From: Nanobdellati archaeon
Lineage (GTDB): Archaea > B1Sed10-29 > WALL01
Assembly: GCA_015522845.1 (NCBI GenBank)
Contig: WALL01000021.1
Coordinates: forward strand, 1 to 46,666
DNA: 46,666 nt
Direction: 5' to 3'
Below, one piece after another: positions 12,365 to 24,838 of the stretch (the first letter of the stretch is position 1; each line of letters starts with the position of its first letter). The notes under the pieces were generated by a model that saw only the letters and a list, made by a program, of their open reading frames with translations, ran no database searches and was not told where the DNA came from. The translations under genes were made by a program, and so were the position numbers.

Positions 12365-12973
12365 ATGCTTGGCATAGCGCTTGTCTCGGGCGGGATTGAC
12401 TCTCCAGTTGCAGCGCATATGATTGCAAAGCGGGGCGAGGCACTCCTGCCAGTCTATTTTGATAATTTCCCCCACGCAGGCGAAGCCGCAAAGCAGCGCG
12501 CCCTTAAGGTGATACACAAGCTGCAGTTAGCCCACCGGAGCATCCTTGACCCGGTGATCCTCCAGCACGGGCATTCGCTGGAAACATATGCCAAGGAATG
12601 CAACCGCAGGTACCAGTGCATCTTCTGCAAGCGGATGATGGTGCGTGTTGCCTCTGTACTTGGGAGGAGGGAGGGTGCGGGCTATATAATAATGGGCGAC
12701 TCGCTTGCGCAGGTTGCATCCCAGACTCTTCAGAACCTGTACGTTGTTGAGCAGGCCGCATCGCTGCCAATTGTTAGGCCGCTAATCGCACTGGACAAGG
12801 TGGAGATAGAGAAGGCTGCAAAGGAAATTGGGACGTTTGGCATTTCAACGGCAGAGCAGCCCCCCTGCCCGTTTGTCCCTGAAAGGCCAAGCACCAATGC
12901 GCAGCTTGATGCCATCCTTGCTGAGGAGGCGAAGCTGGACATAAGCGGGCTTGTTGAAAGCCATTTCCAGTAA
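12365..12973 (+). CDS. thiI: ThiI-like PP-loop sulfurtransferase lacking the THUMP domain
   Basis: SGGIDSPVA, CIFCKRMM, GDSLAQVASQTLQNL, RPLI..DK.EI and PCPF motifs. Only about 200 aa. Confidence 0.75.
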   Translation: MLGIALVSGGIDSPVAAHMIAKRGEALLPVYFDNFPHAGEAAKQRALKVIHKLQLAHRSILDPVILQHGHSLETYAKECNRRYQCIFCKRMMVRVASVLGRREGAGYIIMGDSLAQVASQTLQNLYVVEQAASLPIVRPLIALDKVEIEKAAKEIGTFGISTAEQPPCPFVPERPSTNAQLDAILAEEAKLDISGLVESHFQ

Positions 12974-13005
12974 GACTTTTAAACTCCAATGGCTTATTCC
13001 TGCAT

Positions 13006-13434
13006 ATGGAAAAGGTGCAGATTGCTTTGATTGGCGGCGCGGCAGTTGTTTTGGTCGTGCTAATTATCCTTGTAGGGATGCTAGGGCTAATTGGCTATAT
13101 GTATTTCAAGTCGCACCCAAACGCCGGAAATTACAACTATAGCACTTATAACGGCTCGGTAACCGTGACTCCCAGCCCAAGCGCAACGCTGGTTCCATCG
13201 GCAACTCCAACGCCGGCGCCAAATGCAACTGTGACGCCCACGCCAACCCCTACGCCAACGCCAAGCCCTTGCCCGGCATATGAGGGGAAGACAGCAGCCG
13301 GCTCGCGAGTATGTGGCGGCAAGGATGCGGACCCGACGAAGAAGTATGTATGGGAATGCCAGGACGGAAGCTGGACTTTCATTGAGGCTTGCTCGTCTGC
13401 ATCCGCCTGCTCGGACGGCATCTGCAGCAGTTAG
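13006..13434 (+). CDS. Membrane-anchored surface protein with Pro/Thr linker and small Cys-rich domain
   Basis: N-terminal TM helix, TPTP repeats, and six Cys in the C-terminal ~50 aa. Confidence 0.75.
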   Translation: MEKVQIALIGGAAVVLVVLIILVGMLGLIGYMYFKSHPNAGNYNYSTYNGSVTVTPSPSATLVPSATPTPAPNATVTPTPTPTPTPSPCPAYEGKTAAGSRVCGGKDADPTKKYVWECQDGSWTFIEACSSASACSDGICSS

Positions 13435-13435
13435 C

Positions 13436-13604
13436 TTTAAATATAATTGCGAGAAAAGGATAGCGATGCGTAAAATGGCCTGTTGCTGTTGCTGCTGAGA
13501 AAGCATCCAACTACTTCTTGCAATGGGCCTGGCAATTGCTTTAGAAGGCTTACACCTTGTGCTGCCGCCTGTTGCATGAACCCAAAAAACAACAGGCGAT
13601 TGGC
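13436..13604 (+). promoter_or_regulatory. Putative cysteine-responsive translational attenuator of cysK
   Basis: Segment 1 GGCCTGTTGC (13477-86), segment 2 TGCAATGGGCC (13519-29), segment 3 CGCCTGTTGCA (13566-76) and segment 4 CAACAGGCG (13590-98, overlapping the SD-like AGGCGA) form mutually exclusive 1:2, 2:3 and 3:4 helices. Confidence 0.7.
13466..13498 (+). CDS. Poly-cysteine leader peptide MRKMACCCCC
   Basis: ATG CGT AAA ATG GCC TGT TGC TGT TGC TGC TGA. It lies 22 bp after the TATA box TTTAAATA (13436-13443) and directly upstream of cysteine synthase. Confidence 0.8.
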   Translation: MRKMACCCCC

Positions 13605-14516
13605 GTGATATACAAAAGCGTGCTGGACATGATTGGAAAAACCCCGATGGTGGAGCTCTCCCTGAACCGCAACCCCCGGGCAAAGCTATTCGCAAAGCTG
13701 GAGAAATTCAACCCCGGCGGCTCTGTAAAGGACAGGATAGCGCTCTCAATGATAGGGGATGCCGAGCAAAAGGGGATCCTGAAGCCAGGGTCCGTTATTG
13801 TCGAGCCAACCAGTGGCAATACGGGCATTGGCCTCGCACTTGTTGGTAGGCGAAAGGGATACCGCGTGAAGATAGTCATGCCTGCGGATGCAAGCAGCGA
13901 AAGGAAAGTAATGATTCGGGCGTTGGGCGGCGAGCTGGTGCTGACCCCTGCTTCCAAAGGTGTCGATGGGGCAAGGGAGCGTGCTGCGGAGCTGGCTGCA
14001 AACCCAAACCATGTCATGCTTGACCAGTATTCCAATGATGCCAACTGGCTTGCGCATTACAGCACAACGGCAAATGAGATATGGGGGGACACGGGCGGCA
14101 AGGTTACGCATTTTGTTGCCGGCATGGGAACGGGCGGCACGCTTATGGGAGTCTCGCGCCGGCTGAAGGAATTGAACCCAAGCATCAAGATAATTGGCGT
14201 GGAGCCAACCAAGCACCATCACTTGGCCGGGCTGAAAAACATGCGCTCGCAGGAAAGGCCAGCCATATATGACGAGTCATTGATTGATGAAGTAATCACT
14301 GTTACCGACGAGCAGGCTTCTCACATGGCCCGTGCCCTCGCCGAAAAAGAAGGGCTTCTCGTGGGCATGTCCAGCGGGGCTGCTGCTTATGCGGCACTGG
14401 CACTCACAAGGCACCTGGATGGGGGGGTTGTCGTCGCCCTTTTTGCGGATGGTGGCGAGAGGTATCTGAGCACACGGCTCTTTGACAGTAAGGGTTTTAA
14501 ACGGGTTGGTGCTTAA
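13605..14516 (+). CDS. cysK: PLP-dependent cysteine synthase (CysK/CysM family)
   Basis: IGKTP, KLEKFNPGGSVKDR (PLP Lys), EPTSGNTG, GMGTGGT, GMSSG and DGGERYLST motifs. GTG start after AGGCGA. Confidence 0.93.
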   Translation: MIYKSVLDMIGKTPMVELSLNRNPRAKLFAKLEKFNPGGSVKDRIALSMIGDAEQKGILKPGSVIVEPTSGNTGIGLALVGRRKGYRVKIVMPADASSERKVMIRALGGELVLTPASKGVDGARERAAELAANPNHVMLDQYSNDANWLAHYSTTANEIWGDTGGKVTHFVAGMGTGGTLMGVSRRLKELNPSIKIIGVEPTKHHHLAGLKNMRSQERPAIYDESLIDEVITVTDEQASHMARALAEKEGLLVGMSSGAAAYAALALTRHLDGGVVVALFADGGERYLSTRLFDSKGFKRVGA

Positions 14517-14573
14517 AATGCCGTTAGGGCATGCAAAGCATGCCCCGAGAGGCTGGTCCATGCTCCTATGGAC

Positions 14574-14647
14574 GCAGAGGTGGCAGAGCGGCTATGCACC
14601 CGGCTGCAGACCGGGAGACTCGGGTTCAAATCCCGACCTCTGCTCCA
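14574..14647 (+). tRNA. tRNA-Cys(GCA), CCA encoded
   Basis: Acceptor GCAGAGG/CCTCTGC, U73 discriminator, anticodon stem CCCGG/CCGGG with loop CT-GCA-GA, T-arm TCGGG-TTCAAAT-CCCGA. Confidence 0.95.
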
Positions 14648-14832
14648 GTTACCCACCCTTACTGGAGGGTGAGGATCCCCAGGGTATCCAGGGGGGCTGT
14701 GCCCCCCTATGGACGCTGTTTTGATCCCGACCTCTGCTCCAGTTACCCACCCTTACTGGAGGGTGAGGATCCCCAGGGTATCCAGGGGGGCTGTGCCCCC
14801 CTATGGACGCTGTTTTGATCCCGACCTCTGCT
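14630..14832 (+). repeat. 94-bp tandem repeat (2 full copies + 15 bp) beginning in the tRNA-Cys 3' end
   Basis: ATCCCGACCTCTGCT at 14630, 14724 and 14818. Units 14630-14723 and 14724-14817 are identical and contain several hairpins. Confidence 0.95.
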
Positions 14833-14836
14833 TTTT

Positions 14837-15097
14837 ATGAGAATAGAGAAAAAGGTCTGGCCCGAATATTTCCAAAAAATCCTTAATGGCGACAAAACGT
14901 TTGAGTTGCGCCTAGCGGATTTTGAATGTGCTCCTGGTGACACGCTGCTGTTGGGGGAGTGGGATCCAGCAACGCGGGATTATACCGGTAGGGAAACCGA
15001 AAAGACGGTCAGCTATGTTATAAAAACAAAAGGCCAGAAGTTTTGGCCGCAGAGAGATGTGGACAAATACGGGTTTCAGGTAATCGCGTTCAGCTGA
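14837..15097 (+). CDS. DUF3850/ASCH (PUA-like) domain protein
   Basis: KKVWPEYFQKIL.G.KTFELR..DF...GD.L.L.EW.......YTGR signature. Confidence 0.85.
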   Translation: MRIEKKVWPEYFQKILNGDKTFELRLADFECAPGDTLLLGEWDPATRDYTGRETEKTVSYVIKTKGQKFWPQRDVDKYGFQVIAFS

Positions 15098-23069: not shown

Positions 23070-23441
23070 ATGGAAATGGTTTCAACATCTAAGGCACCGG
23101 CTGCGGTTGGCCCATATTCGCAGGCCATTGTGGCCAGTGGATTTGTTTTTACAGCGGGGCAGATTGCGCTTCGGCCAGATGGCACGCTTGTTGGGGGCGG
23201 CATCGCCGCACAGACAGAGCAGGTGATAAGGAATTTGGCTGCAGTGCTTGGGGCTGCTGGCTCATCGCTTGCCAAAGCCGTAAAGGTAACAGTTTACCTT
23301 GCAGACATTGGTGACTTTGCAGCAATGAACAAGGTGTATTCCAAATACTTCACCGCCAAGCCTGCGCGCTCCACGGTTGCAGTGAAGGCGCTGCCGAGGG
23401 GTGCCCTTGTTGAAATTGATGCAGTTGCGGTGGTGGGATGA
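23070..23441 (+). CDS. ridA: RidA/YjgF enamine-imine deaminase
   Basis: APAAVGPYSQA, AGQI, KVTVYL, PARSTVAV..LP..LVEID motifs. Confidence 0.93.
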   Translation: MEMVSTSKAPAAVGPYSQAIVASGFVFTAGQIALRPDGTLVGGGIAAQTEQVIRNLAAVLGAAGSSLAKAVKVTVYLADIGDFAAMNKVYSKYFTAKPARSTVAVKALPRGALVEIDAVAVVG

Positions 23442-24838
23442 GGATATTCAACACGATGGGCAGGAAGCTCCAGGAGTTTATTCCAGTGCACAAGGGGGAG
23501 GTGCGCATCTACTCGTGCGGCCCTACAGTGTATGCAATGCCGCACATAGGTAACTTCAGGACGTTCTTCCTCACCGACATAATCCACCGCTACTTTGAGT
23601 ATAAGGGATACAAGGTCACACTTGTCATGAACATTACTGACATCGATGACAAAACCATCCGTGGCTCCGAGGCGGCGGGCATGACGCTGAAGGAGTTCAC
23701 CGACAAGTACACGAAGGTGTTCTTCGACGGCCTCGACGCGCTGAACATACTCCGCGCAGACCATTACCCGCGTGCCACCGAGACGGTGCCGGAAATGCTT
23801 GATATTATCCAGCACCTGCTTGAGAATGGAGTTGCATACATAGCGAATGGCTCTGTCTATTTCTCCATACACAAGTTCCCAGCCTATGGCAAGCTTTCTG
23901 GGATGGACTTGGATGCCTTAGACCACGGGCACCGCGTTGACAGCGACGAGTACGAGAAGGATGCCCCCGGTGACTTTGCACTCTGGAAGGCGGCTACGCC
24001 AGACGAGCTCAGGCGCGGCATATTCTTTGAGGCGCCATGGGGCAAGGGCCGGCCGGGATGGCACATCGAGTGCTCGGCGATGGGCCCAAAATACCTTGGC
24101 TCTCCCCTGGACATCCATATTGGGGGGGTTGACCTGATATTCCCGCACCACGAGAATGAGATTGCACAGTTCGAGGCAGCTTATGGCAAGAAGTTTGTAA
24201 ACTATTGGGTGCATGGCGAGCACCTTGTAGTTAATGGCAGGAAGATGAGCAAGTCAAAGGGCAACTATTTCACGCTAAACGACCTGCTGAAGAAATACAC
24301 TTACAACGAAATACGCTACCTATTCCTCTCGACACATTACCGCGACAAGCTTAACTATACTGAAAAGGCGATGCAGAATGCTGCAAAGGGCGCGGCAAAG
24401 CTAGAGCTAGCGCTGCAGAACTTGGATTTCTTCATTGCAAATGCAAAAGAGGGGGAAAGCGACAGCGGCTTCCTAGCAACTGCCAAGCAGCGGAGGAGGG
24501 AATTTGAGGAGGCAATGGACGGCGACTTCAATACCCCCAAGGCCCTTCGTGTTATCCATGAGCTTGTTTCAGATATTTACAAGTATGCTGGCAAGGAAAA
24601 GGGAACCCTGGAAACGGCCCGCAGTACCCTCCTGCTGATGCTCCATACCTTCGGGCTCTTTGAGAAGGAGGGTGAAAGCTCACAGCTGCCAGCGGAGCTT
24701 ATTAAGGAGATCCATGAGCGCGAAGCAGCAAGGGCAGCTAAGGACTGGGCGAAAGCGGACGCTATCCGCAGCAAACTAAAAGAAAAAGGGATACTCCTTG
24801 ATGACTTCCCTGAAGGAACACGCTGGAGAAGGGCTTAG
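23438..24838 (+). CDS. cysS: Cysteinyl-tRNA synthetase
   Basis: CGPTVY, HIGN, DFALWK, GRPGWHIECSAM, FPHHENE and KMSKS motifs, plus the anticodon-binding tail. Confidence 0.97.
   Translation: MRIFNTMGRKLQEFIPVHKGEVRIYSCGPTVYAMPHIGNFRTFFLTDIIHRYFEYKGYKVTLVMNITDIDDKTIRGSEAAGMTLKEFTDKYTKVFFDGLDALNILRADHYPRATETVPEMLDIIQHLLENGVAYIANGSVYFSIHKFPAYGKLSGMDLDALDHGHRVDSDEYEKDAPGDFALWKAATPDELRRGIFFEAPWGKGRPGWHIECSAMGPKYLGSPLDIHIGGVDLIFPHHENEIAQFEAAYGKKFVNYWVHGEHLVVNGRKMSKSKGNYFTLNDLLKKYTYNEIRYLFLSTHYRDKLNYTEKAMQNAAKGAAKLELALQNLDFFIANAKEGESDSGFLATAKQRRREFEEAMDGDFNTPKALRVIHELVSDIYKYAGKEKGTLETARSTLLLMLHTFGLFEKEGESSQLPAELIKEIHEREAARAAKDWAKADAIRSKLKEKGILLDDFPEGTRWRRA

Follow-up and report, generated by a model that had tools for sequence, protein, structure and literature searches.

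A candidate cysteine-sensing leader-peptide attenuator upstream of a cysteine synthase gene in a DPANN archaeon

Features of the locus

This study concerns the 5' leader of a cysteine synthase gene in an uncultured archaeon with a genome of DPANN size, for which an original prediction had proposed ribosome-mediated attenuation through a poly-cysteine leader peptide. The leader lies in the window, i.e., the whole stretch of 46,666 nucleotides that was analysed, which is contig C21 of the source genome (G000; 749,914 bp or ~750 kb, 46 contigs, 89.7% complete). The comparison set consisted of 31 species genomes, which represent the whole phylum/class of G000, and besides the source, those labelled G001, G004, G006, G008, G020 and G025 are discussed below. 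The family of the window includes G000, G001 and G004, the first two being congeneric, and G008 (66% complete) belongs to another family of the same order. The comparative evidence from these genomes favours the attenuation reading. Coordinates refer to the whole window unless a locus in G008 or G025 is named, and all energies are given in kcal/mol. The features around the leader are as follows:

13436-13443, forward strand: TATA box TTTAAATA, the predicted promoter of a leaderless transcript
13466-13498, forward strand: leader short open reading frame (sORF) MRKMACCCCC* (ATG CGT AAA ATG GCC TGT TGC TGT TGC TGC TGA), ten codons, with the Cys codons at 13481-13495 and the TGA at 13496-13498
13605-14516, forward strand: cysteine synthase of the CysM/CysK type, 303 aa, GTG start (Pfam PALP, E 1.8e-76)
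14574-14647, forward strand: tRNA-Cys(GCA), found with ARAGORN and Rfam, 57 nt after the stop of the synthase

All of the predicted elements were present base for base: the TATA box, the 22 nt that separate it from the ATG at 13466, the mini-ORF itself, the 106-nt spacer that follows its stop and the GTG at 13605. In the crude gene calls of G000, the gap between a YTTAWAWA box and the ATG has a sharp peak at 22-23 nt (12 and 10 genes, respectively). The spacing had been described as similar to that of other leaderless genes, and this similarity extends to the genome-wide mode, so the ATG of the sORF sits where the leaderless genes of G000 start. We infer that the transcript is leaderless and that its 5' end lies at or next to the A of this ATG. 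Both leaderless starts and starts led by a Shine-Dalgarno (SD) sequence are used in this genome, in which 239 of 709 crude genes have an SD-like 4-mer between -20 and -4, compared with 19% of random windows. The sORF contains the only run of at least five Cys codons, in any frame, of the whole genome; runs of three to four are common. A search of G000 for a second copy of the 172-nt leader returned none. Two kinds of candidate were discarded. A 72-aa ORF in the frame of the sORF (13280-13498) overlaps the ORF at 13006-13434, and its frame is closed in the relatives. Among 50 sORFs of G000 that are preceded by a TATA box, the only additional one with a homopolymer run, MLTIII*, overlaps the TATA box of an HTH gene.

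The downstream gene had been called cysK. It scores nearer to CysM than to CysK: with the NCBIfam models, TIGR01136 (cysKM subfamily) gave 375 bits against a cutoff of 344, and the cysM and cysK models gave 361 and 335 bits, both under their own cutoffs. When the enzyme is aligned with its ortholog in G004 (58% identity), the GTG start and the ATG start of the latter fall on the same residue. A cysE gene (serine acetyltransferase, TIGR01172) was not found in G000 at its 89.7% completeness, and the CysM-like enzyme may use another substrate, e.g., O-phosphoserine.

Four segments of the leader had been proposed to pair in alternative ways, and their coordinates and pairings agreed with that proposal:

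13477-13486, forward strand: segment 1 GGCCUGUUGC, sORF codons Ala5 to Cys7, a partner for segment 2 or segment 4
13488-13511, forward strand: small hairpin GUUG.UGCU GAGAA AGCA..CAAC over the last Cys codons and the stop, in the minimum free energy (MFE) structures of G000, G001 and G004
13520-13529, forward strand: segment 2 GCAAUGGGCC, inside the motif CUACUUCUUGCAAUGGGCC, which is conserved in four leaders
13566-13576, forward strand: segment 3 CGCCUGUUGCA, a near copy of segment 1
13590-13604, forward strand: segment 4 CAACAGGCG plus AUUGGC, which contains the SD-like AGGCGAU (13594-13600)

Segments 1 and 2 can form 10 bp with two G-U pairs (-17.9), segments 2 and 3 a duplex of -17.5, segments 3 and 4 nine perfect bp (-19.4) and segments 1 and 4 a duplex of -17.3. 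Helices 2:3 and 3:4 are mutually exclusive, and 3:4 includes the SD-like AGGCGAU and stops directly in front of the GTG. The small hairpin is not kept in G008. A search of positions 12500-15000 with the Rfam 15 covariance models (E ≤ 1) gave no match on the leader; it returned the tRNA and two sub-threshold chance hits over the tRNA region.

Conservation of the leader in related genomes

A cysK/M-like gene (E ≤ 1e-20) was found in seven of the 31 genomes, three of which belong to the family of the window. All three of these family members carry, 100-130 nt upstream of the synthase, a ten-codon sORF that ends in CCCC(C) with TGA as the stop: MRKMACCCCC in G000, MQGLACCCCC* in G001 and MNTMDLCCCC* in G004. 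A TATA-like box precedes the ATG by 22 nt in G000, by 24 nt in G001 and G004 and by 24-25 nt in the more distant leader of G008, which is described below. The N-terminal residues differ (MRKMA, MQGLA and MNTMDL), the Cys codons differ synonymously, and the frame of the sORF is closed a few codons upstream in the relatives (19, 21 and 15 aa from stop to stop). Because the N-terminus varies and the frame is closed, the conserved features are the start, the length, the Cys run and the stop rather than a peptide. The in-frame ATG, the ten-codon length, the TGA and the TATA spacing are kept in all four leaders while the first five residues vary, the Cys run alone is conserved at the peptide level, and the genes beside the element are the synthase, tRNA-Cys and cysS. 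These observations make it improbable that the leader is no sensor of translation at all, that is, that it encodes a functional Cys-rich micropeptide or binds a metabolite or a protein with the Cys codons as a by-product of a stem, even though UGY repeats pair well with strands that contain GCA or CAA, so that a constraint on the stem could favour them, and the lack of a known Rfam match leaves room for a new RNA class.

The comparison of G000 with G001 showed that identity is highest in the sORF (80%) and amounts to 74% from the stop to segment 3, 62% in the first 300 nt of the coding sequence and 48-56% in the flanking DNA. The synthases of these two genomes are 45% identical and belong to different subtypes, CysM-like in G000 and CysK-like in G001. 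The same leader and tRNA-Cys surround different synthase subtypes, which suggests that the coding sequence was replaced between conserved flanks.

Poly-Cys sORFs and covarying stems had both been expected in orthologs. The former were conserved in every family member that has the synthase, but covariation of the stems was not statistically shown by the four sequences. In a MAFFT alignment of the four leaders, the structure of the 5' domain is 82.9% paired compared with 21-52% for slid registers; the RNAalifold consensus that was calculated on the same alignment was register-shifted and was discarded. A search of the phylum for the pattern of four Cys codons and a stop gave 11 matches, of which four are the leaders and seven lie inside coding regions. 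The covariance model that was built from the four 5' domains recovered only its four training sequences (E 2e-21 to 1e-15). Its next hits had E values of at least 0.009, and the seven that were inspected were all rejected as chance matches, one of them being an out-of-frame CCCC run in a membrane-protein gene. An exact 22-mer scan for four Cys codons, TGA and a 7-base conserved tail gave 20 matches in the genome contigs, two of which were real, namely the G001 and G004 loci; this pattern was too strict, since the leader of G008 lacks the tail.

With a looser definition, an sORF with CC in its last six residues precedes five of the seven cysK/M-like genes in the phylum compared with none of the seven examined outside it, the relatives not being independent of one another; the background for such an sORF is four of 699 crude genes in G000 (0.6%). 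The weaker candidates before cysK are the sORFs of G006 (..TSCC*) and G020 (..SCCWLYC*). In both of these genomes, a second small conserved frame (..KGDYRC..) was seen 40-60 nt before the cysK start and overlapping the start region; it resembles the SD region of G001 in its DNA (GGTGAC.AC.GGTG).

Strength of the pairing relay

The strength of the pairing was assessed with a relay score: the best chain in which three helices overlap was taken, and its weakest link gives the score. With the sORF and the final 28 nt held constant, the spacer was dinucleotide-shuffled 150 times per genome, and the search was exhaustive. The weakest link was -17.9 in G000, -19.2 in G001 and -17.1 in G004 compared with shuffle means of -10.3 ± 1.3, -8.4 and -10.7, respectively, and in each genome all 150 shuffles fell short of the observed value. 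Helices 1:2, 2:3 and 3:4 each have an energy of -14 to -24 in all three synthase leaders, and in all three, the SD sequence lies inside 3:4 (AGGCGAU in G000, GGUGA in G001 and GGAGG in G004). The relay of G004 is built from partly different segment sequences, its 2:3 being a 13-bp helix of UCUCAAUAGGUCC with GGGCCUAUUGAGA, and its compensatory differences were taken from per-sequence duplexes.

These values bear on one alternative, a chance ORF together with chance complementarity in intergenic DNA. The abundance of runs of three to four Cys codons in G000 and a whole-leader z-score of only -1.86 would be in line with it, but we consider it very unlikely, as the element is conserved in four genomes from two families before cysteine-related genes, no shuffle attains the strength of the relay, and the background of terminal-CC sORFs is low.

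Leaders linked to tRNA-Cys and cysS

A fourth homologous leader was found in G008 (C37). It has a TATA-like box at 1450-1457, a ten-codon sORF, MKSRTFCCCC*, at 1483-1515 and the motif around segment 2. Instead of a synthase, it is followed by tRNA-Cys(GCA) at 1623-1695 and then by an ORF from the ATG at 1709 that has a CysRS signature (cysS). The covariance model scored this leader at 69.8 bits, its training set having included G008. The relay of G008 beats 150 of 150 shuffles and ends on the tRNA: a 15-bp helix (-17.9) can join segment 3 to the final base of the leader and positions 1-16 of the tRNA, which form the 5' acceptor strand and the D arm of tRNA-Cys, and the Cys tract can pair with the same stretch (1:4, -18.5). 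A second TATA-like box, TTATTTAA, lies at 1589-1596, ~27 nt before the tRNA, and the tRNA-Cys may also have a promoter of its own.

A similar arrangement occurs in G025 (C90, 1131-1510), in which a TATA-like box, a 22-nt gap and the 8-codon sORF MAAGLLCC* are followed by a tRNA-Cys-like sequence and cysS. No significant relay was found in this leader (56 of 150 shuffles). Its tRNA-Cys-like sequence was missed by ARAGORN and apparently contains an intron after the anticodon loop. In G004, an intron-bearing tRNA-Cys follows the synthase, with a TATA-like box directly before it and cysS ~0.7 kb further on. This tRNA (C26, minus strand, ~1440-1340) was not called by ARAGORN, and its insertion resembles a non-canonical intron located in the T-arm region. 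The location of tRNA-Cys beside cysS is common in the phylum. A match to cysS was obtained in 27 of the 31 genomes, and the upstream survey covered the 21 of these 27 loci at which the gene was located, with six left out; a terminal-Cys sORF was present before cysS only in G008 and G025, and a CC-containing sORF in G006.

In the source genome, too, tRNA-Cys comes directly after the synthase. No TATA-like box was seen between the synthase and the tRNA (14517-14573), and the two are possibly co-transcribed. The same order of synthase and tRNA-Cys was found in G001, where the 5' end of the tRNA is partly repeated between them. In the window, a perfect 94-nt tandem repeat (14630-14832, 2.2 copies, 100% identity) begins inside the 3' end of tRNA-Cys; the last ~17 bases of the tRNA are thus present in triplicate, with TTTTT following the final copy. 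The repeat may be a scar of integration, what is left of a split or duplicated tRNA, or an artefact of the assembly.

Since the leaders are found before the synthase as well as before tRNA-Cys and cysS, they are associated with genes for cysteine and tRNA-Cys rather than with a single gene lineage. It is possible, and we put it forward only tentatively, that the poly-Cys leader is the sensor of a small regulon for Cys-tRNA homeostasis (synthase, tRNA-Cys and CysRS) in Iainarchaeota-type DPANN archaea. In G008, whether the tRNA can fold and mature would then depend on a 5' leader of its precursor that is translated, and ribosomes short of Cys-tRNA would cause more tRNA-Cys and CysRS to be released. 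To our knowledge, no ribosome-sensed switch that acts on the folding of a tRNA has been described.

The leaders that are linked to a tRNA, at any rate, require an output at the level of transcription or RNA processing. The question arises of whether the same is true in general, i.e., whether Cys-tRNA is sensed but the output is premature termination, factor-dependent termination on RNA that is free of ribosomes, or the maturation of the downstream tRNA-Cys rather than the masking of an SD sequence. The next gene in G008 and G025 is a tRNA, which has no SD sequence, runs of T4-T5 occur 3-6 nt after the stop of the sORF in both of these leaders, and the tRNA-Cys of G000 follows the synthase without an obvious promoter of its own. 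However, 3:4 overlaps the SD sequence in all three synthase leaders, the tRNA-Cys of G004 has its own TATA-like box, and no run of at least four T is present in the leaders of G000 and G001, with a single T4 in that of G004. The lack of such runs in G000 and G001 makes translational control likelier than termination, as had been proposed for G000 from the lack of a U-tract after 3:4, and we think a transcriptional or processing output as the general explanation distinctly unlikely.

As for the other genes of the window, the cysS of G000 lies at ~23438-24706. Upstream of the leader (12365-13434), a ThiI-type PP-loop protein (Pfam, E 4e-51) is followed by a 142-aa Thr/Pro/Cys-rich ORF, for which no Pfam match was found. 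The stop of this ORF (TAG, 13432-13434) is 1 nt before the TATA box.

Proposed mechanism

We consider it probable that the leader is a ribosome-mediated translational attenuator that senses Cys-tRNA(Cys) and acts in cis in the 5' leader of the cysteine synthase mRNA. The sequence elements, their conservation, the link to cysteine and tRNA-Cys genes and the pairing potential were observed in the leaders themselves; the predicted parts of the mechanism are where transcription starts, that the ribosome translates the sORF and stalls on it, which way the switch works and that the output is translational. A ribosome would load on the 5' end of the leaderless transcript and translate the ten-codon ORF, the last five codons of which are for Cys. 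When Cys-tRNA(Cys) is plentiful, it would finish and leave, segment 1 would pair with segment 2 or, in G000, with segment 4, and the AGGCGAU and the GTG region would be held in 3:4 or 1:4, leaving the synthase poorly translated. When Cys-tRNA(Cys) is scarce, the ribosome would stall on codons 6-10 and cover segment 1, segment 2 would pair with segment 3 while the leader is being transcribed, and segment 4 would stay single-stranded, which would permit translation of the synthase.

The predicted folding of the leaders is partly in agreement with this scheme. In the free leader, the SD sequence is masked, with a mean probability of being unpaired of 0.15 in G000, 0.01 in G001 and 0.03 in G004. 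Truncation of the transcript behind segment 3, combined with blocking of nt 1-30, lets 2:3 form in all four leaders. When nt 1-30 are blocked in the whole leader at equilibrium, to imitate a ribosome halted at the first Cys codons, the expected opening of the SD sequence takes place in G000, where the probability rises from 0.15 to 0.50, but not in G001 and G004. Because equilibrium leaves 3:4 closed in the latter two, the model requires co-transcriptional (kinetic) folding or trapping there. The switch would thus work on paper if folding follows the order of transcription as it does in classical attenuators, whereas the equilibrium alone supports it in G000 only.

Several results weigh against attenuation by four segments. 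With nt 1-30 blocked, the equilibrium accessibility of the SD sequence stays at 0.01 in G001 and 0.03 in G004, and the state with 3:4 is better than the state with 2:3 by 4.5 and 8.7, respectively. In G000, 1:2 and 3:4 were expected to form when Cys is plentiful; both are possible, but the MFE structure of the free leader pairs 1:4 and 2:3 (-51.7) rather than 1:2 and 3:4 (-44.2). Either of these states is predicted to hide the SD sequence. The MFE of the whole leader (-52.5) is only modestly below that of the shuffles, as the z-score given above indicates. Judged by the usual size of a ribosome footprint, a ribosome at the stop codon of the sORF would fall short of segment 2, unlike in the trp model. 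Only four clear related leaders are available, and the covariation among them is indistinguishable from that of shuffles, with 348 of 500 column shuffles of the four-sequence alignment pairing as well. None of the 66 matches of the exact 22-mer scan in metagenome contigs was real. Moreover, the 3' end of the 16S rRNA is absent from the G000 assembly, and the anti-SD sequence is therefore assumed.

Some of these points lead to the main rival, which is a mechanistic variant with direct pairing between the Cys tract and the SD sequence. In such a two-partner sensor, segment 1 would be the anti-SD strand that pairs with segment 4, a stalled ribosome would uncover the SD sequence, and 2:3 would be a static inner hairpin. 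The MFE structure of G000 is exactly 1:4 with 2:3, the leader-only MFE structure of G008 has the same outer and inner layout, and the rise in accessibility upon blocking nt 1-30 of G000 would be expected here as well. A precedent exists in mycobacteria, in which the Cys tract of the Ms5788A leader pairs with the SD sequence, according to a preprint (bioRxiv 10.1101/834739). However, 1:4 is weaker in G001 (-15.0, in a state 8 above the MFE) and poor in G004 (-9.4), whereas each of the three genomes has strong 1:2, 2:3 and 3:4 helices and a significant relay. We regard the two-partner sensor as an unlikely alternative to the four-segment attenuator.

Relation to known systems

In bacteria, attenuation by a leader peptide is a textbook mechanism, and it relies on the coupling of transcription to translation. 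Like the trpL, hisL and pheL attenuators, the archaeal leader combines alternative 1:2, 2:3 and 3:4 helices with an ORF in which codons for the regulated amino acid are enriched. In those systems, however, 3:4 is an intrinsic terminator with a U-run, whereas here it has no U-run and holds the SD sequence. Transcription termination works differently in archaea and bacteria. The arrangement is also reminiscent of translational attenuation of the ermC/cat type, in which a ribosome that is stalled on segment 1 frees segment 2 to pair with segment 3 and thereby releases the SD sequence and start codon from 3:4. Four segments are common to both, and so would be a stall-driven release of the SD sequence, but ermC and cat are bacterial and SD-led and it is a drug together with the nascent peptide that stalls their ribosome, whereas in the predicted leaderless transcript of the archaeon, the stall would come from the lack of a charged tRNA. 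The leader of G008 before cysS can be compared with pheM of pheST, which is a leader peptide that controls an aminoacyl-tRNA synthetase operon. The T-box of Firmicutes is likewise a leader that senses tRNA charging in cis and controls aminoacyl-tRNA synthetase and amino-acid genes, including those for cysteine. Unlike the present leader, it binds the uncharged tRNA directly and without translation, and no match to the T-box models of Rfam was obtained here.

The closest known system is that of the leaderless poly-Cys sORFs of mycobacteria (bioRxiv 10.1101/834739). That preprint bears out the statement of the original prediction that such sORFs attenuate cys genes in mycobacteria, and it presents attenuation for cysteine by an upstream ORF as undescribed until then. 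As in Ms5788A and the mycobacterial 'Cys' regulon, a probably leaderless short ORF that ends in a run of Cys codons precedes cysteine genes, among them cysK, and several cysteine-related operons of one lineage carry such leaders. In G000, the Cys tract has the potential to pair with the SD region of the gene that follows, as in Ms5788A, where control is translational and without an intrinsic terminator, and the same level of control would apply here. The archaeal leaders differ in their domain of life, their TATA promoter and archaeal ribosomes, in an sORF of ten codons compared with 30 in Ms5788A, in a four-segment relay that is kept even where 1:4 is weak (G004), and in having one member before a tRNA and cysS. 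Given the different domain of life and the very different length of the sORF, the likeness is most likely convergent, and homology is unlikely.

We know of no case of leader-peptide attenuation in archaea. Full-text searches of the literature did not find an archaeal leader-peptide attenuator, in accordance with the earlier remark that no characterised example was known, and in a review of archaeal translation initiation, neither 'attenuation' nor 'leader peptide' occurs. The leader described here is a conserved and sequence-defined archaeal candidate, with which the use of ribosomes on leaderless mRNA as amino-acid sensors can be tested directly. Control by poly-Cys sORFs would have evolved convergently in mycobacteria and DPANN archaea. 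If the variant in G008, whose last segment is the 5' half of tRNA-Cys, is real, it would be a new output for such a sensor. For the organism, the leader points to a regulated supply of cysteine and tRNA-Cys in a genome of 0.75 Mb, in which few regulators would be expected.

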